Source of the DNA: a virus
Taxonomy: Duplodnaviria > Caudoviricetes
Virus record (IMG/VR): IMGVR_UViG_3300013121_000016
Location: 39,170-103,169 of that record
DNA: 64,000 bases
Strand: one strand, 5' to 3'
Part shown: positions 1,841-60,849 of the stretch, piece by piece
Layout of the letters: each line of letters opens with the position of its first letter
Position numbering within the stretch: position 1 is the stretch's first letter
Made by a program: the position numbers and the translations under genes
The notes under the pieces: model-generated
Seen by the model: only the letters and a program-made list of their open reading frames with translations
Databases searched by the model: none
Told to the model about the DNA's origin: nothing

Positions 1841-2085
1841 GGGCCTGATCCTGGACATCTTTGGTTAGTTGTAATCTTTAAATGACGAATCGCTTTCTTT
1901 TGCTGCCTCAATCCCCTCGTGGGCCGTGACTTACATCCAGGCAGCTCCGCTCACCTCTACAGCGGATGACCAAGTAGAGGCACCCGAACTCCTCGAAGTT
2001 TTAGTATAGTCATTACCCTTTACACCTTACTAGCTTAATCGCCCTCTAATCAAACACGCGGGTTCGACTCCCGCCAGGTCCACCA
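1841..2085 (+). ncRNA. ssrA: tmRNA (ssrA-like), compact, 245 nt
   Basis: Acceptor stem GGGCCTG (1841-1847) / CAGGTCC (2075-2081) with G3:U70 Ala identity pair and ACCA 3' end; no D-stem; helix 2 TTTGGTTAG (1860-1868) / CTAATCAAA (2046-2054); T-arm GCGGG-TTCGACT-CCCGC; resume-like TAAAT|GAC at 1879-1886 opening DESLSFAA... Confidence 0.85.
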
Positions 2086-2962: not shown

Positions 2963-3204
2963 TGGAAATCACTATTTATTTTGAAGCTATTGATGAGGAC
3001 ACTCTTGGTAATGGGCGCACGATGGTAGCCATCGACGTTCCCTTGGCAAGGAACGTCGAGGACTTCGACAAAGTACTTGACTCTCAATTCTCAAACTTCA
3101 AGATGCGCCTCCTTACCGAGCTCTATAAAAAGTACCCCCACTACTGGCATAAGAATTCACCGATCGAACACGATAAATTAAAATCACTAGAAACGAATGG
3201 CTAG
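2956..3204 (+). CDS. hypothetical protein
   Basis: ORF coupled to groEL; the likely start is ATG 2962 (TAATG overlap). Confidence 0.6.
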   Translation: MVMEITIYFEAIDEDTLGNGRTMVAIDVPLARNVEDFDKVLDSQFSNFKMRLLTELYKKYPHYWHKNSPIEHDKLKSLETNG

Positions 3205-4810
3205 AAAAGTCATATCAGGACAAGAACTACAGGACGGATTATCAAGAGGAGTCGACATCCTTGCCGACGCTGTAGGTTCAACCCTGGGCCCACTGGGCCG
3301 AAACGCTATTATTGAGACTCCTTACGGAGCGACTACCGTGACTAAGGATGGAGTGACAGTGGCTGAGCTTATTGATCTTGAAGATCCTATCGAGAACCTT
3401 GCTGCTCAGATCCTTAAGCAAGCTGCACAGCGAACAGCCAAGGTTGCCGGAGACGGCACGACCTCTGCTACAATTATTGCGCAAACTCTCTATCAAGAAG
3501 CCCGCAAGCTTATTACGTCTGGAGTAGCTCCGATTCACATCAAACAGAGCTTCGAGCGGTTCCTAACCCAAGTTATTCCGCTCATCAGAGATAAGTCTTT
3601 AGAGGTCTCTACCAAAGAGGATATCTATCAGATTGCTCTCATCTCAGCTAATAATGATGCGCATATTGCCAGTCTTATTGCTCAGGCAATGGAATATGTT
3701 GGAAAGGATGGGACTATTACATTAGAGGAGTCAAAGACTGGGACCACTGAAGTTACACTTGTTGATGGTTACGCTTTCGAGCGTCCTTACGCGTCTCCCT
3801 ATTTTGTTACTAATCCTGCGAAAGGCGAAGTAGAATTGGATAACCCACTCATTTTCATTACAGATAAGAAGCTTCGCTACACGCAAGAGATTATTCCTAT
3901 CCTGGAACTTGCTCACGCCAATTCTCGTCCACTGCTGATTATTGCTGATGATATTGAAGGCCAAGTCTTACAGACCTTAGCAATCAACAAGATCTCCGGG
4001 ACTATTAAAGTATCAGCCTGCCGTGCACCTTCGTATGGTGAGAATCGTCTTCAAGTCTTACAGGATATTGCAGCGCACACTTCTGCTACTGTTATCTCAG
4101 AGTCTTCGGGCCAGCGCATTGAAGACACTACTTTTGAACAACTAGGCGAAGCTGCTAAAGTTCGTTCAACTCGTAACGAAACTATTATTATTGATGGAGC
4201 TAAAGATGAAGCACGTACTGAAGAGCGCGCAGAGCAAATCAGACTTGCTCTTAAAGACTACACCGGTGACTCTTATTACCACAAGCAATTACAAACACGC
4301 CTCTCGAAACTCACAGCCAAAGTGGCTATCCTACATGTTGGAGCAGCAACGGAAACTGAACTCAAAGAGAAGAAGGCGCGAGTTGATGATGCACTCCGAG
4401 CTACGACGTGCGCTGTCCAAAAAGGATATGTTGTAGGTGGTGGTACTCTTCTTGCTAAACTTTCAAAACAATTTGCAAATGAAAACGACATCATATCGAC
4501 AGTTTTCGCCAGAGCTCTTTCGGCGCCGCTTCGCAGAATTGCTCAAAACGCTGGCACATCCCCGGATCTCGTCCTTGCGAAAGTACTTGAGGAAAAGAAT
4601 GAGTTTTATGGCTACAACGCGTTAACTAACGAGTATACTGACCTAATTGTTGCCGGGATCATTGATCCTACCCTGGTCGTTGAACAAGCACTACTTAACG
4701 CAGTCTCCGCTGCAAACATGCTAATTCTATCTGCTACTGGTATCTACAACATAGACCGCACGCCGCCCTACTCTCCCGGTAATTTAGGAGACTTTCAGTC
4801 AGAAGAATAA
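3197..4810 (+). CDS. groEL: chaperonin GroEL (Cpn60), phage-encoded
   Basis: TLGPLGRN, VTKDGVTVA, AGDGTTSAT, ISANND, VGAATETELKEKKARVDDAL, GIIDP motifs; no GGM tail. Confidence 0.97.
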   Translation: MARKVISGQELQDGLSRGVDILADAVGSTLGPLGRNAIIETPYGATTVTKDGVTVAELIDLEDPIENLAAQILKQAAQRTAKVAGDGTTSATIIAQTLYQEARKLITSGVAPIHIKQSFERFLTQVIPLIRDKSLEVSTKEDIYQIALISANNDAHIASLIAQAMEYVGKDGTITLEESKTGTTEVTLVDGYAFERPYASPYFVTNPAKGEVELDNPLIFITDKKLRYTQEIIPILELAHANSRPLLIIADDIEGQVLQTLAINKISGTIKVSACRAPSYGENRLQVLQDIAAHTSATVISESSGQRIEDTTFEQLGEAAKVRSTRNETIIIDGAKDEARTEERAEQIRLALKDYTGDSYYHKQLQTRLSKLTAKVAILHVGAATETELKEKKARVDDALRATTCAVQKGYVVGGGTLLAKLSKQFANENDIISTVFARALSAPLRRIAQNAGTSPDLVLAKVLEEKNEFYGYNALTNEYTDLIVAGIIDPTLVVEQALLNAVSAANMLILSATGIYNIDRTPPYSPGNLGDFQSEE

Positions 4811-7050
4811 TGATTTTACCTTCTAATCCTAAAGATTTCTTACTTAAAGAAATTCCAGATTTCCATCCTCTTTCTGCATCTTGGGCTGCTTTCTGAAGAG
4901 AGCAGTATCGATACTGCAAGGAGGGCTATTGGGTGGGTGGCACTTGAATGCCGCCTGCCCTTTACTATTATGCGAACTTTGGAACTATTAAGAAGAACAT
5001 AAAGTTTTCCTCAGCCAAAGTTTACGATCGACCAGACCTTCGAGATCTGGAATGGGACCTCTTCTATCACTACAGTGAAGCAAGAGGTTTTTCTGGTTTT
5101 AAGTATGATGACGTTTATTCGTCACACAGGATACTACTTGATCCTGACGTAACTGACGATTTTTTACTTCTTAATCTTCCTGAGACACTTAATTCTAAGG
5201 GAGAACGTAAGACATATGTGCCTGCGCGAGATTACATGCGCAAGCTACATCCCACCGCTCTTGGCCCACCGCTCTTTGACAACGAGAAGAAGAACCTTAT
5301 GCTTCTCGGCTCTCGTGACTTAGGTAAGTCGTTTGCTGTCGGTGTAGGGATGGTTGGTCACATGTTCCTCTTTCCGCCCGCTGCCAATCACACCAAACGT
5401 ATTCCTACTGAGGTTCTAGTTGGAGCATCTATTTCTGACAAGTCTCGAGATCTTCTAAAGAAGACTAAAGACTCTTTTGACTTCCTTCCGGGTAAGCGCA
5501 CTATCTCTGGTCGCACTTACCCTTCGCCATTTTATAAGCAGTACTCTGGCTCTTGGTCAGTAAACTCGGATATAAAGGCTGAATATAAGAAGAAAGTGGA
5601 TGGTCGTTGGGATACTGTTGGTAGTCGTGCTGTTATTAAACACAGGTCCTTCAACGAGAATCCGTTTGCTGCTCAAGGTACCCGCCCCGACCTTATGGTC
5701 ATTGAAGAAGCAGGTATGGCTCCCGAGCTTAAAGACATTTATGTTCACTCAGTGGATGCTCTTCGTCGCGGTCTTACCAAGACTGGTACTCTCCTTGTAC
5801 TTGGTACTGGTGGTGACATGGCTAAAGGTACACTTCCAGCCTCTGAAATGTTTTACGAGCCTGAGAAGTACGACTTCCTGGCTTTTGAAGACATTTATGA
5901 GCAGCGCGGCAAGATATGTTACTTCATACCAGCCTACTATTCGCTTGATGAATTCCGTAACGCTAATGGATATGTTGATGTAGAGAAGGCGACTAAGAAA
6001 CTTCTCAATGTACGTAAGCTCAAAGGAGGCGACTCGGGTGCGTCTACGGCACTCGATATGGAAATGCAGTATCGTCCTTTGGTGCCGTCAGAGATGTTCC
6101 TATCTAAGACAGCAAACATCTTTCCTTTTGCGGAATTGCGTCGCCGCCTCTCGGAAATACAAGCTACCTCTACTTACGAGAAACTAGAAAAAAAGGTAGA
6201 TCTGTTCTTCGATCCGTCGGCCAAGTCCTACAACGGAGTATCTTACGAGATTAACGATAGACTTAATCCAATTACTACGTTTCCTTATGATGGAGACGAT
6301 AGAGAAGGAGCTGTTGTTATTTACGAGTTCCCACAGCTTATCGACGATAAAGTACCGCAAGACGCCTACATTATTGGTTGTGACCCGTATAAAGATGATA
6401 CACAGGAAGGCCAATCGCTCGCCGCAATTTACGTCGTAAAAACCTCGAAGTACTTCTCCACTATCGGTCACGATGAGATAGTTGCTTCATATATAGGACG
6501 CCCATACATGGGTAAAGTGATTGTGAATGAGATACTTCACAAGCTGTCACTATTTTACGGCAACGCCAAGATTTACTTCGAGAACTCAGTGGGTAATGTC
6601 AAAGATTACTTTGAGCGCGTTACGCGCCTAGACTTACTTGCAACACAGCCCACGACTCTTTTCAACAAGAAGGCTTCCTACAACACTTCTCCGACACTTA
6701 TTTACGGTTATCCCATGCCCAATCAACGAGTTAAGTGGGAGGCGCTCCAGTACTTGCGTACGTGGCTTCTTACCGACCGAGGTGATGGTAAGCGCAATTT
6801 AGATCTCATATCTGACCCAGCGCTTCTTCAAGAGCTAATCTCCTTTAACCTTGACGGCAACTTCGATAGGGTGATGGGCTTGGTGGGTTGCGTTATTGGA
6901 CTGGAGGAAACCTTCAACCACACAAAACGATCACAGGAGCGAGAAGTATACTCTTCAGCTCTTGATTTAGAGATAATATCAAAGCTTACAAATAACAAAG
7001 CTTTATTCTATGAAAACTTTCCCAAAGCAAAGACTTCCATATTCGCATAA
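4810..7050 (+). CDS. terL: terminase large subunit, 746 aa with 2 TGA=Trp
   Basis: ATG 4810 overlaps the groEL TAA; in-frame TGA at 4894 and 4945 give AAF[W]REQ...EGYWVGGT[W]MPP; Walker A-like GSRDLGKS, Walker B MVIEEAG, LGTGG, RNase H-type YIIGCDPY and NFDRV. Confidence 0.92.
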
Positions 7051-9415
7051 GATAGCAAAGGATTACAAGTGGGCTAAGGAAGTGATGAACCATCTACTCG
7101 AGAATTTCACACTAGACTCCACTGCTGTAAACGCTTTCCAGACCGATTACCATAGGAAGCTTTCTAACTACCAACTTTACAATAATCAAATTAATCAAAA
7201 GGACTTCGAGCGTGAATGCAATCCACTAGGACTAGAGGTCGGTCAGATCGCTGACGAAATACAGCCTTATAATAAAGGTAACAACAAGATTCAGGTCATC
7301 CTTGGTGAGGAACTCCGTCGCCCATTCAACTTCCGTACTATCTTAGTTAATTCAGATGGAATTCGCTCTAAGATGATGTATCGCGACACCCTACTTCGCA
7401 AGTTCGTGGAGGATCAAGTTCAACAGGTGTTGTCATCTCTTTCGCAGATGTACGATCAAGAGAGACTTCAAGAAGAGACAGAGAAGATACTTAACCCCAA
7501 AGAAATAGAACGCTACATGTCGACGTCTTATTTAGATGCGCGTGAGCAGCTGGCAGCTAAAATGCTACGTTATCTTCTTCGTTCCCTCGATATACAAGAT
7601 AAGCGCAATGACGCTTTTAAGCACGGGCTCATCTCTGGTGAAGAGGTTGTCTATGTAAGCGTGCAGAATGAGCAGCCTGTGCTCGAGATTATCAATCCTC
7701 TAGGGTTCTTCTATCACAAGTCTGCTGAGACTAAGTGGATTCAAGACGGACTTTACGCGGGCTTCCGTACTTACCTTTCACCTGCTGAGATCATCGATCG
7801 ATACGGTCAATACCTTTCGGAAAAAGAGCTTAAGGACATTGATTCAGCTCTTTCAGCATTCCACGACTCTGATAACGCAATCTCGCGCTCTATGAATTAT
7901 GGACACGATCAGTTGCTTAAAGTACAGCTAGACCTCACCACGCAAGGTTCTTACTCGGATTCCTCTATCGAGGATTATCTCGTTGAGCACATAGAATGGG
8001 TGTCTCAGCGCCGCATCGGTTTTCTAGAGATCACTTCTCCAGACTCCGAGCCAGTGACTGATATGGTGTCAGAAGACTTTCCAATTCCTACTTACGCCAC
8101 ATCTCGCACCGAGACTAAGGAGTACGGCAAAAAGTGTACTTACATCGAGTGGCTTGACGAGTTAGGCAATGCCTACTCGCTTGAGTGGGGATGAATCCCA
8201 GAAGTATGGGAAGGTGTGCGCATTAACCGTAACATCTATTGCTGCATTGGTCCTAAAAAGGAGCAGTTCCGTTCAACGGACGATCCTTATACAGTTAGAC
8301 TCGGCTACCATGGTCTTGTCTATAATGCGATGAATGCTCCATCTATTGCTATGATGGATCGCATGAAGCCTTTCATCTATCTTTACATGATAGTGATGCA
8401 TAAGCTGAAGCGGCTAATTGCCCAAGATCAAGGTAAGGTGTTCCACTTCGATATATCGATGGTAGATCCTAAGATAGGTCTAGAAAAGACGCTCTACTAC
8501 CTTAAGGAGATGAATCTTGACATCTTTAATCCGCTTCAAAATGCTGACCAGCCCGGTCAAATGCAGCGCGGTAAAGTGTCTTCGTCTACGGATATGTCTA
8601 ACACACAACATATTCTTAATTACGTGTCTTTACTTGCTGCTATCGATCAACAGATCGCTGAGGTTGCAGGTGTGACTCGTCAACGCGAAGGACAGATTTC
8701 CCCTAATGAAGCTGTAACTAATGCTCAGTCTAACGCGCAAATGTCATCTGTAATCACTGAGATTTATTTCTACGCGCACGACCGGCTTTGGGAGAAAGTC
8801 CTCACTTCACTTCTGCAAGTTACACAAGCTGCCTGGAAAGGTAAGTCAATAACCAAGCAGTACGTTCTTGATGATCTTTCCCTAGCTACCCTCGAAATAT
8901 CTGCAGATCAAGAGTTCGAAGAGATAGGAGTGTTTGTTACTAACTCTGGACATGAAGTACAGATGTTCGACGCGCTCAAAGGTATATCTGATGGTCTACT
9001 GAACACCAACCGCGCTACCTTCTCTGATCTTATTGCGCTCTATCAAGCAACTTCTGCCGAAGAACTCAAGGACCTTATTAGACAATCCGAGAAAGAATCC
9101 TTCGATCGCGAAATGCAGAAACAACAGCAGCAGACTGAAGCACAAGCACAGATGCAGCAGCAACAACAAGCTTTCGAGCTTGAGAAACAACAGCGTGAAT
9201 TTGAGCACGACGTTCTCATACACGAGATTGATTCTTTTAAATTCCAGAAAGATCAAGACTCTAATGACAATCAGATACCTGATCAGCTTGAAATTGCGAA
9301 GCTAAAACTGGACGCAGCGACAAAGCAAAAGAAACTTCAACTTGAAGAAAGAGCCCTTGATATCAAGGAGAAAGAAGTCAAATTAAGGGCAAAACAGAGC
9401 TCCACAAAGAAATAG
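7010..9415 (+). CDS. portal protein, 801 aa with 1 TGA=Trp
   Basis: Two track ORFs are in one frame, joined by TGA 8192-8194 (EWG[W]IPEVWEGVRI); follows TerL; crAss-like portal motifs (VLGEELRRPF-like, GVTRQREGQI, Q-rich coiled-coil tail). Confidence 0.9.
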
Positions 9416-55100: not shown

Positions 55101-56263
55101 ACGGAAGTGACTTAGCGCTCCCAAGATTTATCAAGCGCTTTGATGACACTGTGTACATGAAGATTCCTACAGGCACAGAAAATGCAACATATTACCGGGC
55201 AATTACACGCACCACTCGCCACAAGTTCTACTTCTTATCAGATCCATCTGTAGGATCGAGCTTTGATTTAGATCTCTTGTCAGCACAGCAGACTTTACTC
55301 ATTCCGCTAAGTTCTTTAGTTCCCAATGGCTTTAAGACCACTGATAACCTTGAGGAGGGAGAAATTGCGTACATATACGACAACCTCTCTCCACACCCGC
55401 AATCGCTCAAACGCATAAAAGTCGAGAGATTAGCTTCCTCTCTTGGCGGATACAATACGTACACTTACACCCACATTGGAGAAATCACTCTTACAGATGA
55501 AGCCTCTATTACGGAGCTTAGAGAACAATCATTGTCTATTGACTCATCAGTTGATGCACGTGTTGTCACGGTTTCGACCGCTAGAGAAGCCATTGAGAAT
55601 GCACGGAAACAGCGTAATCGTTCAGCCGTATCCTTAGTCAGAGATGATCAAGCTGGAGTAGGTGATAACGTTTACAAGCTAGATATACAAACTATCAATC
55701 TAGATGCAAGCAGTCAAGAGATTGCAGACTATATTGAGCGCGTAATGAAACAGATTAGAAAGATTCCTAACAATGTAATCGTATATACACCGGCAAATCT
55801 TCTTGATCCGTTAATGGATGCTACACCAGACATAGCTAAGAAATTTGCAGAGGCCATCTATGATCGGACTGGTTTTGCCTTCCCTATACTCAGCGAGGAG
55901 AATCTCGACTCACGCTTACCAGAGGCCGCACAACTGATCATCAAACGCAGAGAAATTCTCAAAGCAGTTCTTAACAATGGTGTGTTAGTACAAGAGTCTG
56001 ACAACACAGCACTTGCACCTTATAGAGTTCTGATAAGCGACATTGCGACAACTAACTCGTTTACGAAAGGTAAGATTCGTCAAGGAAATATAATTTCTAT
56101 AGGTCAAGTAAACGGCCACGAGGTGTATGCATTTGTGGATTACGTCACTGATACTTACCTTTATGTTACACCATTCTCTGAAGATGTCTTTATGCTTCTG
56201 CAAGAAGAGCGGTACAGTAACGAAGACTTTTATAAAATTATCGACAACTTTAATAAGTGCTAA
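40163..56263 (+). CDS. giant virion polyprotein (5366 aa with 2 TGA=Trp): membrane-like N-terminus, SF1 helicase-like, zincin-like and two-barrel virion RNA polymerase domains
   Basis: Three track ORFs are in frame, separated only by TGA 43628 and 50189; Walker A APAGAGKT (44120-44143), LLVLDE, YTATSRA; HELFH (48290-48304) plus EERLAE; RNAP motifs TDAEG, MKP, FRIP, GSDNDVD (52334-52348). Confidence 0.85.
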
Positions 56264-59200
56264 TGAAATGTCCATTAATTAATACGCCACACTGGAGATC
56301 ATTGGTTAACAAGTACGGAGAACGTCGGGCATATCTAATGTACGATTTGGATATGCCTGCCTCCTTTATCACAGACCGTAAAGAGGTCTTAAGTGAACTT
56401 GCTGACCCTCTTTTTCAAAATATCCGAGACAGAGTATACAGCTCTCCTCAGATGTTCCTATCCAAATACGACACATACCTTCGCAACATTATAAAAGGTA
56501 CTCCAACTATTGACAAAGCTGTCGATGTCTTTTACTCTCGTGCTAAAGGCATTGGTGGGACGGTTATTGGAGATGTTATACAGACTCCAGGAAAGAACTT
56601 CCTTTTATTTCCTGAGGCAAGCGGTGATTATAAAGCTGCGCCGTCTGGATCTGTTCCACAGAAGATGCAGAACCTTCTAGAGACGCTCTCATCAAAAAGT
56701 GGAATCCCATTCCAAGTGATCAATGACAAGACTCAGAAATTTAAAGGTCGCTACATATTTGACGGGGACGAAAGGATAGTCTTAATCAATCTAGCATATG
56801 CAGACTTAAGCACACCTCTTCACGAGTATTATCACCCGATTGTAAGGCTGTTACATACTAAGAACGAAAAGCTTTTTGACTCAATCTTACAAGAAGCTCG
56901 CCAGGTTGCCGTGGATGATCGTACTGACTCTGAAGAGTTAGTGACAGAATATCTCGCTAAACTAGCTTCTAGGCCTACTTCCACCTTTACTCGATTCATG
57001 AGCTGGCTCACAAGTTTCCTTCGTCGTACTCTAGGAATTACTAAGCCAATAGACAAGCTCAATTCAATTGGCGATTTGCTTAAGTTCACTGAAGACTCGT
57101 TAAGCGCAGGTCTAGAAGAGTACACACTCTCGAAGGCTGACTCAGATCTTATGCAGATTCTTAATAACATGACTTCTAGTGAACGCACTAACTTCAGAGT
57201 TAAGAAGGATGAATCCGGTTTAGACTACGTTGATGCTTTAGCTAAACTAGCGGTAGAGCAAAACGTGACTACTGATGACACTAGTCAATACTATAAGGAT
57301 GCTTCAGGAACGGATGTTGCCGTCCGTCTAACACAATTCATAGGTGATAGAGACTTAGGGGAATTTTCTGTTAAATACAAGGATAAGCGCTACTCATTTG
57401 CAGAATATGCAGCAAGGGAAACATTTAAGCGTCAAGGCTACGATACTAAAGATCTACCAGTAGATGAAGTTACTGACACAGTAATCTTTGAAGGAAACCC
57501 ACTCACCCTCAAGCAGCTCATCGATAAAATCGAAACCGTATTTGCGCAGCAGCGTATTTACGGTAAGATGGTTCACGCATTTATTCAGTATAAGCTAGAG
57601 CGTGATCCACAAAAGAAAGAGCAGGCCAAGCAACTCGCCACAACCTACGCGCTCCAAGCAGGTACAACCTTCGTGTCCTTAGAAACGCACGGGGACCTCA
57701 TAGAGTACGAGCAGAACTTTGAAAAGGTCTTAGCTGTTGCGGGCATCAGGTTGTCGGGCGCAGTTCCTGACAGGGTCGCACCTGAGGCATCTATAATGTC
57801 TAAGATCGTTAAAGACTCTCAAGGGAAGTTTATCGGTACAACGATTGACTCTTTGATTCAACACTCTAACGCTGACGTATCTTTAGTCGACTGGAAAACT
57901 GGTAACATTCTTAATGATGCACTTAGTACAGCAATCATGGCTTACAGTGGCGAATTAAACTTACCTGATTCTAAGCTCAGCAGAGCCTACTTAGAGATGG
58001 CATACCGTGCAGTCATCTTAAAAGAGCACTTCCCCGACATGCGCTTCAGAAAGATCGGCATAGCTAAACTTTCTAAGTCTGGTAATCACACATTTATGGA
58101 GCTAGATCTCCAACCTTACCTGACCCTAATTGGCAACTACTATAAGAAGGTAAATCCTGAAGTCTATGAAGAACTTAAGAAAGCAAACCTGCTTTCAGTT
58201 AAGTCGTACTTAGGAACTAAAGGAGAGCTAGTGCGCGTACTGCCCTATGGATTGCATCTGGCTCCTATGGAGGATCAGTTAGCTTATTTACAGGCGAAAC
58301 TCGATAAGCTTTCCTACGGCATGACTCCTGACCAGATGTCCAAATATCCGGACTTGCGTGAAGAAATTCGCATGTATACGGAAGCAATTCTAGAAATCAA
58401 GAAACAGCCAGGTATGGATCTTGACGAGAAAACGCCGGACATTCCTGGTGTTACAGGACTCACTAAGAACTTCTCTGATATATCTAATCCTAAAGTTCAA
58501 GTACTCCATAAGGAGATTCTAAAAGCTAAGGCCAAAGCTTCAGCGGACACCAGAGCTTTGGTGGAGCAACACGATAAGCTCGCAGCTGAAGTTGTCAAAG
58601 AGTCTGTCGGGATTACTGCTAAGACATTTAAGAAACTTCTAACTATCCCCCTTGTTTACTCAATTATTACTTTAAATGCAGGAGTCCTCATACCTACAAT
58701 TGCAATCGGTTTAATCTTACGTAGATATGGCAAGACTACAAAGGACGTATTTGGATTCATGTGGAAGAAGTCAGAAGATGCTGGTAGGACAGGTTACTTC
58801 TTAAATACTACAGATTTCCATGAAGGGGTGCCACTCACTGCTGCACAGCGGGCATATCGTGACTACTTTGTTTCATCTATGCGCCAAACGTATTACAGTG
58901 TAATGGACGAGGCTGTCGCTAGCACCCAATACGACAGAGTTATCACTCGTGCTGAGGCATTAAATAAACCTGCCGAGCTTCCTGCGGACTTTATGCCACG
59001 TGTTCCCATCGGTGTGAGTGAGATACGCGAGAACCAACCTTACTGGTCAGGATTCTTCGGCTTACAGACTTCAGCTAAGCACTTCGTACAGTCCCAACTA
59101 ACAGATCACTTAGCCAATGCGTATACTTCCGAGGATGGCAGACAACCTATTCCGCTCAAATACTTCGGACACACGGGCTCGGTTACTGTAGAAGAATCGA

Positions 59201-60849
59201 ATCACTCATTCGATCCGACAAAAGCCTATTCAATGTTCATAGGTAATCTAATTTACAAACAGAACTTTGATCACCTTTACAACTTAGCACATGGTGTAAA
59301 GGTGGCTCTTGACATGGAGACAGATGAAGCGGGTAATGCGCGCTACCAAGGACTGACCAAATGGCTGGATCTAGAGATATATTCCCAAATCTTAAATACA
59401 CATAAGCCGAGCAGTTTCACTACTAGCAAGTGAGTATATACTGTTGGTAAGCTAGGATCCAAGATTCTCGATATGGAGGAAGGCACGCGCATTCAACTTT
59501 CACAGGAGAAGATCGTAAATCTGGCAAGGGTAGGTACAACGTACGTAGTCATGGCATTCAAATTAGCTTCCGCCATTCGTAACGGTCTTTTGATCTCAGT
59601 GCTTAATGTCATGAATGCTACACGGATAGGAATATCTAAACTCCTTGGTGTACCACCAGATGACTACACCCCAACCTCGAAAGGTACGTTTGCAGCATTC
59701 TTAGACGTAGCTAAATACTTTGGTCAGAAGATGCAAGGTAAGGAAGACGACTCTAAACTGTGGCAAATGGCTAAAGAATTCGACTGGCTACCCGATAACT
59801 ATCCTTACTCGACAGATCCAAAGAACTTCTTTTCTGAATCTATCAAGTTTAGTCCTAACTCTTACGCATTCATGTTCCACAACTTCGTTGAAACATATGG
59901 AGCTCTTGCGCACCTTTCAATCCTTATGCGCTCATTAAAACTGAAGAATGCGGCCGGAGAGAGCTTCTCTGCCTGGGAAGCCTACGAAGTTAAGGATGGT
60001 AAGCTACAGTGGACGAAAGGTTCACGCGGTAAGGTAGAAGTCTCCGAAGGAGTCTTTAAGGACTTAGAAGGTCTTGATATTAACGAGATTAAAAACATGC
60101 GCAGGGCCTACGAGAAACTTCAAGGGTCATACCGCAAAGAAGAGATGGCTGCTATTGAATCCACTATTATGGGCGGATTCCTCTATCAGTTCAAAAAGTA
60201 CTTCTTCCAATACATGAAGAATCTGTTCGCTTCTCCATTCAAAGATCAGACTGTCGGACAGTACGTAATAAATAAAGATATTACCAGACCTGACGGTGTA
60301 CCAGTATGGAAATGGGAGTCTGAAGTAATGGAGGGACGCTTAAAAGTCCTTGCAGGAGGTATCATGGCTGGAGGCCTGTCAAAGGCTCGCTGGTCTGCTT
60401 ACCTAGATACAGATGCATATAACGGACCTAACACTAGAATAGCCAGACGTAAACATTTAATGGAGTTAGTCAACACTATGCTCTGGATGGCGTTACTGTT
60501 ATTCTTCTTTATGACGATGTTTCCTGACGATGACGATAAGAAAACGTATGCCGCTCGATACTTCCGCAGGACGATGGAAGACGCATCAATGGGACTTAAC
60601 CCTAAAGATCTATTCCAGACGATGTCTAAGCCTGTAGTAGCGCTTGATCGCATCCCCACTATTGGAGATGCTACCTTCGATCTATTTACCGAAGGTGTTT
60701 GGGGTAAGACAACTAGAGACGGATGGCCTGTTGGTTTGAAAACGCTCTCACGTAATACACCAGGAGCGGCTTCAGCTCTTCAAATAAAAGATATACTCTC
60801 AGATTATGATTGGGAAGATAGTGAATCATTATATGGAGTAATGAAGTAA
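56263..60849 (+). CDS. large ejected protein with zincin-like and PD-(D/E)xK nuclease-like domains, 1528 aa with 1 TGA=Trp
   Basis: ATG 56263 (TAATG); HEYYH (56821-56835) plus EELV; G..VH...TIDSL...VSLVDWKTG; TGA 59431 joins the C-terminal part; hydrophobic segments near the C-terminus. Confidence 0.8.

Follow-up and report, generated by a model that had tools for sequence, protein, structure and literature searches.

The 64,000 nucleotides analysed here (the window) make up the right-hand part of a virus record of 103,169 bp, which is complete and has direct terminal repeats. They carry a whole, one-piece transfer-messenger RNA (tmRNA) gene of 245 nts with an encoded CCA end (1841–2085, + strand, as are its parts and the neighbouring tRNA gene). 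Its reading frame begins like an ordinary degradation tag, continues through the place where the ancestral stop codon stood and closes 33 codons further on, thus spelling an acidic tag of 41 amino acids. A small family of related phage tmRNAs likewise has a sense codon at the place of the former stop. We favour, with a probability of roughly 0.55, the view that this is a working rescue RNA which would use the alanyl-tRNA synthetase (AlaRS), SmpB and EF-Tu of the host and add alanine plus 41 residues to unfinished proteins.

Identification of the RNA and of its relatives

An earlier note, made from the letters alone, had predicted a minimal phage tmRNA at this place and had suggested ARAGORN and the Rfam model RF00023 as a check. 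At standard thresholds neither makes the call: ARAGORN finds only the neighbouring tRNA in the window and no tmRNA, and Rfam at its gathering thresholds (47 bits for RF00023) does not call the locus. When thresholds are relaxed, RF00023 recognises the T-arm and nothing else of the gene (2057–2074; 18.5 bits, E 1.7e-5). The prediction itself is nevertheless borne out by two other approaches. A scan for tRNA-like domains, defined as a T-arm, then an acceptor strand with U70, plus a matching 5' strand starting with GGG, gives one match in the window as against 0.005 per shuffled window. Moreover, a family covariance model (R1) built from three relatives, with the window left out, matches 1841–2085 end to end (25.9 bits, E 5.7e-6) and has no other match in the 64 kb. 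The element is far beyond chance. As this form escapes standard annotation tools, current counts of phage tmRNAs are probably too low.

Related terminases (46–65 % identity) are carried by 56 viral contigs, several of which have a tmRNA a few kb upstream of the terminase gene; with TerL as query, no relative of the window phage closer than 65 % came out of the viral and metagenome contigs searched. ARAGORN calls the tmRNA of contig L121 and of four near-identical contigs (247 nts, tag DNSYADALIVPENSTSYVSQEVEILELVYA) as well as that of L128 (261 nts, tag DNSYEPALMAPKNSTRFVPQEVELEVVSAVYA), and these share GAC as resume codon. Our own scans together with the family model add L145 (tag DNSFEPALLVPKNSTRFVPQEVEIEVVSTVYA), L140 (101.7 bits, tag DNAYEPALPVPEMSTLSVEPEVETLEYAYAYV) and L168 (304 nts, with a 54-codon frame ending EEMELVEVHA). 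The family comparison comprises seven members; L153, whose tag is not acidic, ends in QHYYA and has an uncertain frame, and L166 are counted only as uncertain members. L144 was excluded, its apparent tRNA-like domain sitting inside a long protein frame. Over the full model L128 (76 bits), L121 (62.9) and L145 (53.4) pass the RF00023 gathering threshold. These scores tie the family to genuine tmRNA, and R1 in turn connects the RNA of the window with these relatives. G1–G3, U70 and the discriminator A are invariant in all seven members, and acceptor positions 4–7, the T-stem and the 8-bp helix P2a show compensatory substitutions across them. Compensatory change combined with fixed identity elements indicates a structured RNA under selection.

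Several oddities turned up among these contigs. L128 contains, about 540 nts downstream of its tmRNA (2425–2448 of that contig), a second exact copy of the T-arm and 3' acceptor strand (AAGGGTTCGACTCCCTTCATCTCCA) without a matching 5' strand. The tmRNA of L140 (3718–4102) has an insertion of about 140 nts after the tag frame, and the candidate of L166 (5639–6097, 455 nts) an internal tRNA-like T-arm (GCAGGTTCGAATCCTGC); these extras may be inserted elements or reflect a different architecture. Other searches were less productive. The 5' 16-mer had at least 115 matches in viral contigs, all due to chance, with no tmRNA found by ARAGORN in any of them, and neither the window region nor the L128 tmRNA had a tmRNA match among GenBank phages in blastn. 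A gapped pattern (AAATGAC ... T-arm ... TCCA) run over viral contigs returned the known contigs and unrelated phage tmRNAs with ordinary tags. One of its phage contigs, L202, has a 293-nt tmRNA (5522–5817) with the context UUAAAU|GAC and an ordinary 17-aa tag ending in VAA (DENIISLHADQQLKVAA).

Anatomy of the RNA

The acceptor stem is completely paired over 7 bp. Its 5' strand (GGGCCTG, 1841–1847) includes the G3 of the G3:U70 alanine identity pair, and its 3' strand (CAGGTCC, 2075–2081) is followed by the discriminator A2082 and by CCA (2083–2085), which no other family member encodes. A D-loop analogue lacking a D-stem (CCTGGACATC, 1850–1859, with the CCTGGA loop analogue) lies near the 5' end, and all relatives have a GG-containing motif of the form (T/A)GG...GA at the matching place. 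The T-arm reads GCGGG, TTCGACT, CCCGC (2058–2062, loop, 2070–2074). Helix P2a pairs TTTGGTTAG (1860–1868) with CTAATCAAA (2046–2054), the latter followed by a CAC linker; it measures 8–9 bp in the window, and an 8-bp helix with many compensatory changes occupies the equivalent position in seven of seven members. Everything that had previously been stated about this alanine-type domain (G3:U70, encoded CCA, a T-arm and no D-stem) is correct. The figure of about 177 nts given for the enclosed sequence holds for the stretch between the two P2a strands.

The usual pseudoknots have disappeared. In the window as in L168, the 43–46 nts before the resume codon consist of the 5' half of the tRNA-like domain, P2a and a linker of 14–15 nts, which is all that separates P2a from the resume codon and leaves no space for pseudoknot 1; this element is therefore gone in both. 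L121, L128, L145 and L140 keep a 5' part of 83–88 nts with a hairpin resembling pseudoknot 1. Between the tag stop and P2a the window has 36 nts, without room for the usual ring of pseudoknots 2–4.

The tag frame

The frame-setting context UAAAU (1879–1883), with U at -5 and A at -4, directly precedes the predicted resume codon GAC at 1884. From there the frame runs through eight canonical-like codons (DESLSFAA, 1884–1907), then TCA (1908–1910), the first codon of a 33-codon extension (SIPSW...ELLEVLV, 1908–2006) whose peptide resembles those of relatives, and reaches TAG at 2007–2009 after 41 codons in all. UAAAU immediately before the first tag codon is found in six of the seven members (window, L121, L128, L145, L140 and L168), and in the Rfam alignment of L128 the GAC sits on the consensus resume codon. 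The E. coli counterparts of -5 and -4 are U85 and A86, the latter being the decisive base that sets the frame (PMC2481249).

The 41-residue acidic tag ending at TAG 2009, as read in the earlier note, stands up well. It contains seven acidic and no basic residues, for a net charge of -7, and such acidity has a P of 5e-5 in 20,000 nucleotide shuffles. The tag frame is significantly acidic in four lineages (P 5e-5 in the window, 1e-4 in L140, 5e-4 in L121 and 6e-3 in L168), and in the shuffle analysis the other two frames are basic, with stops. In all members the frame is open over 30–54 codons; five relatives have acidic tags ending in VYA, VHA or AYV, and the last three residues of the seven members are VLV, VHA, VYA, VYA, VYA, AYV and YYA. 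The tags are closed by TAA or TAG, never TGA. Not one member of the family has a tag with AA at its end. The tag of the window ends in EVLV, with Ala-Ala (residues 7–8) internal, and so lacks the (A)LAA or xAA carboxylate at the C-terminus that is typical for ClpXP.

Of the three frames, it is the tag frame that shows the highest similarity in most pairs of members. Between the window and L168 its similarity reaches a z of 3.5, as against -0.2 and -0.1 in the others, and between L121 and L128 a z of 12.5 as against 7.2 and 8.0; a 6-nt indel in the latter pair leaves the conserved end in frame. The signal of conservation at the peptide level is real but modest. In the closest pair, L128 and L145, the tag region is 92 % identical in nucleotides compared with 71 % and 61 % in the flanks. 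The frame also contains a hairpin (CCUCUAC ... GUAGAGG, 1954–1980) with homologues in the relatives, built from UCUACC/GGUAGA in L121, L128 and L145, UCUACU/AGUAGA in L140 and UCUGAG/CUCAGA in L168. Part of the conserved peptide (S-T ... V-E) coincides with both arms of this hairpin, which itself shows compensatory change. A frame starting at ATG 1882 with read-through of TGA was rejected, the relatives giving in that case unrelated peptides of 9–22 residues rich in basic residues.

Origin of the long tag

The tmRNAs of five Chitinophagales genomes are ordinary molecules of about 370 nts with the tags GEYSYAMAA, GETNYAMAA and GEANFAMAA. Positions 1876–1913 of the window align with their resume and tag region (UAAAUG.CGAA ... 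GCUGCCU; z 3.0–3.8), and the Chitinophagales stop, TAG or TAA, falls on TCA 1908–1910, just where the resemblance of DESLSFAA to a normal tag had led the earlier note to expect a stop. In the relatives the corresponding codon is ATA, ATG, TTA or CCA, with a stop in none of six; most of these RNAs have homologous extensions, and the extension is thus shared rather than private. The helix-5 loop, where the stops are found, has the consensus UUAAUA; its counterpart in L128 is CUUAUGG, and in the alignment of the L128 RNA the hairpin of the phage tag frame falls on the pseudoknot 2 stem of the Rfam model. The alignments support descent of the first eight codons from a canonical tag whose stop was lost. 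Since the relatives have sense codons at this site and a hairpin and an ending in common downstream of it, the loss is old and family-wide, neither a private mutation nor a sequencing error. The tmRNA probably derives from a host tmRNA of the Bacteroidota type.

A UGA-suppressor tRNA beside the tmRNA

A tRNA-Trp-like gene with the anticodon UCA, a predicted UGA suppressor (2355–2429; called by ARAGORN, 55.7 bits with the Rfam tRNA model), begins 270 nts downstream of the tmRNA and is 78.5 % identical to a phage tRNA-Trp. In-frame TGA codons are found in conserved late genes of the same genome. The portal gene forms one frame across the TGA at 8192–8194 (405 + 407 codons). It is one of four large late frames joined by single TGAs; the others, with TGAs at about 30847, 43628, 50189 and 56257–60849, have 524 + 852, 1159 + 2187 + 2024 = 5,370 and 1058 + 472 codons. 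The frame of 5,370 codons we take to be the giant virion-protein region typical of crAss-like phages. Both hallmarks of TGA recoding, in-frame TGA in conserved late genes and a tRNA with the anticodon UCA, are present, and they fit a reading of TGA as Trp by the phage's own tRNA(UCA).

The neighbourhood of the two RNAs recurs, a tRNA(UCA) lying within about 1.4 kb of the tmRNA in L121, L145, L140 and L153, which with the window makes five lineages. The relatives' UCA genes are tRNA-like genes of 94–100 nts with a long variable arm (L121, 5503–5596; L145, 4412–4509; L140, 5447–5540; L153, 1977–2070; L163, 3368–3467) and take the place of the 75-nt Trp-type suppressor of the window. ARAGORN labels them ‘SeC’, and the Rfam tRNA and tRNA-Sec models remain below threshold; in those phages TGA may stand for another amino acid. 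Suppression of UGA would be expected to carry ribosomes through many stops, some of them as far as the end of the message. A recoded E. coli relies in part on tmRNA to resolve stop codons that have been left unassigned (PMC6207430). A phage that recodes UGA would plausibly gain from extra rescue capacity, and tRNA(UCA) is likely to be a functional partner of the tmRNA in one cassette.

Possible mode of action and alternatives

According to our preferred reading, the tmRNA would be excised from a polycistronic transcript and charged with alanine via G3:U70. Host SmpB and EF-Tu would then bring it to ribosomes stalled without a stop codon, and translation would resume at GAC 1884 to add Ala and 41 residues. 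No gene for SmpB, ClpP, an RF-1-domain protein or PTH2 was found in the window phage, which, having no SmpB gene, must rely on the SmpB of its host. The long frame would go back to an ancestor of the family that lost the stop in the helix-5 loop, upon which the frame ran through the former pseudoknot 2 region to a new stop, and the branch leading to the window would in addition have lost pseudoknot 1. The conserved nonpolar C-terminus of the acidic tag most likely takes over from ALAA in determining what becomes of the tagged protein. The tmRNA and the suppressor tRNA would together make up a translation cassette, providing rescue capacity when UGA read-through drives ribosomes to the ends of messages. 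A version of this scheme that we put forward only tentatively sees a rebuilt small tmRNA module with few or no pseudoknots, whose acidic tag would divert products from ClpXP to protection, solubilisation or another protease and which would work with the adjacent UGA-suppressor tRNA in a code switch.

Several observations weigh against the preferred reading. No published counterpart was found for a tmRNA lacking pseudoknot 1 with 14–15 nts between P2a and the resume codon, as in the window and L168. The tag of the window is weakly similar to the other tags (z about 3), and its C-terminus, VLV, is the most divergent of the family. In the comparison with L121, the tag frame (z 3.0) does no better than frame +2 (z 3.2); for the window, frame specificity is therefore clear only with respect to L168. 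The tag regions of L128 and L145 differ by one synonymous and five conservative nonsynonymous changes without third-position bias, and this nucleotide-level conservation, taken with the overlap of peptide and hairpin, means that selection also acts on the RNA. Finally, the tmRNA is patchily distributed, several relatives with in-frame TGA having none at the syntenic place, so that the link to UGA is one of adjacency alone.

The functions proposed in the earlier note, rescue without destruction or a decoy competing for host SmpB, are not supported by the analysis. In every member the canonical ...AA end has become internal, and the extension could thereby bury Ala-Ala and let tagged products escape ClpXP or be rerouted, a rescue without destruction. 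Nearly all bacteria keep the C-terminal ALAA that ClpXP and ClpAP require (PMC3985003), and tags of the likely host lineage end in ...AMAA; strongly acidic tags could, besides, keep fragments soluble. However, the new C-termini are conserved and nonpolar and resemble degradation tags in general (PMC4131195), which is unexpected if avoiding degradation were the sole aim, and the long non-ALAA tag of Mycoplasma is still an efficient degron, for Lon (PMC8403727). Because of this conserved nonpolar C-terminus and the Mycoplasma precedent, we think it likelier that the signal for handling or degradation was changed than that it was masked, and regard rescue without destruction as rather unlikely. 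Less likely still is a decoy that ties up SmpB, EF-Tu or ribosomes of the host and thereby blocks host trans-translation, the open frame being a by-product of constraints on the RNA and not being translated in full. The mycobacteriophage DS6A has a tmRNA reduced to its tRNA-like domain, and in E. coli a molecule of this kind acts as an inhibitor of tmRNA (PMC4131195, PMC11915505); the missing pseudoknot 1 of the window, the nucleotide-level conservation of the L128/L145 tag region without third-position bias and the partial overlap of the conserved peptide with the hairpin would all agree with such a role. A decoy has no need of a resume context, yet UAAAU|G is retained in six of seven members; 30–54 codons remain open in all of them, with a similar peptide end followed by a stop and acidity only in the tag frame, and other phages apparently using decoys have simply dropped the coding part. 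It is the retention of resume context, frame and frame ending that places the decoy below rescue without destruction.

Two further possibilities appear improbable. Translation might resume at AUU 2012, after UAGUC, and add ITLYTLLA before the TAA at 2036–2038 (AUU ACC CUU UAC ACC UUA CUA GCU UAA, 2012–2038). UAGUC, identical to the five bases preceding the E. coli resume codon, offers U at -5 and A at -4, and Leu-Leu-Ala is a canonical-looking end. This short frame is, however, not conserved: only two codons remain of it in L128 and L145 (IF*, IS*), and the L121 peptide ends in Lys. The Rfam and ARAGORN alignments of the relatives place the resume codon at GAC, and the alignment with host tags favours 1884. 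AUU is also an unusual resume codon. We give as little credit to the idea that the gene is a decaying remnant without function (a pseudogene, or a piece of a host tmRNA left at an integration site), even though standard tools miss it, its pseudoknots are gone, and many relatives as well as Cellulophaga phage phi14:2 have no tmRNA. The gene retains its two ends, perfectly paired, whereas a fragment left at an attachment site would contain the 3' end only; the helices covary across seven diverged members with their identity elements fixed; and the genome is complete, has direct terminal repeats and is laid out like that of a lytic crAss-like phage.

Comparison with known tmRNAs

Like the standard one-piece tmRNA (RF00023; Chitinophagales L303–L306), that of the window has G3:U70, the discriminator A, a T-arm and a P2 helix. 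It also shares U(-5)A(-4) ahead of a resume codon starting with G, a tag beginning with G/D-E-x-x-aromatic-A-x-A-A, and a nonpolar last residue. It departs from the standard in measuring 245 instead of about 370 nts, in having no pseudoknot 1 and no recognisable pseudoknots 2–4, and in the replacement of the helix-5-loop stop by a sense codon, which yields a 41-aa acidic tag that does not end in Ala-Ala. For comparison, tmRNAs typically contain four pseudoknots and their commonest tag length is 10 aa (PMC11915505), while a nonpolar C-terminus is near-universal among tags (PMC4131195).

The closest parallel for the tag is the Mycoplasma tmRNA, whose 27-aa tag is recognised by Lon (PMC8403727, PMC3985003); this tag, too, is long and does not end in ALAA, and it sets a precedent for a changed protease specificity. 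It ends in AFA and belongs to a cell without ClpXP and not to a phage, the likeness to the window being one of description. The Mycoplasma RNA keeps the full pseudoknot ring, unlike that of the window.

Phage-borne ssrA genes occur in about 2 % of phage genomes (PMC9004378) and are known from huge phages (PMC7162821). Examples include the mycobacteriophage Bxz1 group and Bacillus phage G (PMC4131195) and the two-piece form of the OM43 phage Melnitz (PMC9004378). Their presumed role is to keep the translation machinery of the host going or to redirect it (PMC4131195, PMC7162821, PMC9004378). As published, these other phage tmRNAs are full-size or permuted, unlike that of the window. DS6A tmRNA, for which SmpB titration has been proposed (PMC4131195, PMC11915505), is an extreme reduction too; it lacks the coding part, whereas the window keeps the resume context, a conserved frame and a stop. 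No published mention was found of tmRNAs in crAss-like phages, of extended acidic tags or of one-piece tmRNAs that lack pseudoknot 1. What sets the family of the window apart is its long acidic tag, which closes with a new and conserved ending.

If the preferred reading is correct, a tmRNA can work without pseudoknot 1 and with about 15 nts from the tRNA-like domain to the resume codon, which would bear on how the frame is set. It would also be the second natural case, after Mycoplasma, of a wholesale change of tag, here via the loss of a stop codon. As the likely hosts keep an ordinary ...AMAA tag, the phage may itself decide the fate of unfinished proteins. The presence of a tmRNA beside a UGA-suppressor tRNA in several lineages suggests a link between stop-codon recoding and the demand for ribosome rescue that can be tested.

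The phage and the gene neighbourhood

The terminase of the window phage is nearest to those of Cellulophaga phage phi14:2 (34 %) and of gut crAss-like phages. Its gene order (groEL, terminase, portal, capsid, giant virion proteins) is that of phi14:2, and the layout is that of a lytic crAss-like phage. Terminase affinity and gene order thus identify an environmental crAss-like phage. In phi14:2, groEL lies at the syntenic place within the same gene order, yet nothing there matches the family tmRNA model. GroEL of the window phage is most similar to proteins of freshwater Chitinophagales such as Sediminibacterium and Taibaiella (44–48 %), a weak pointer to a Bacteroidota host.

The tmRNA is located between the phage's own copies of a groES-like gene (657–1046) and groEL (3197–4810), which are set apart by the cassette of tmRNA and suppressor tRNA. 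The small open reading frames adjoining the tmRNA have no informative match in Pfam or PHROG. An open reading frame of 167 aa (1337–1840) ends in a TAA that directly abuts G1 of the tmRNA (1841). Should the 5' end of the tmRNA arise by cleavage of a shared transcript, the mRNA ahead of it would finish exactly at its stop codon (1838–1841), and could itself become a substrate for ribosome rescue. On the other side, 18 nts past the CCA, lies a GC-rich hairpin, GGGGGAG(15 nt)CTCCCCC (2103–2131), without a T-run, which may serve in processing or stability rather than as a classical terminator.

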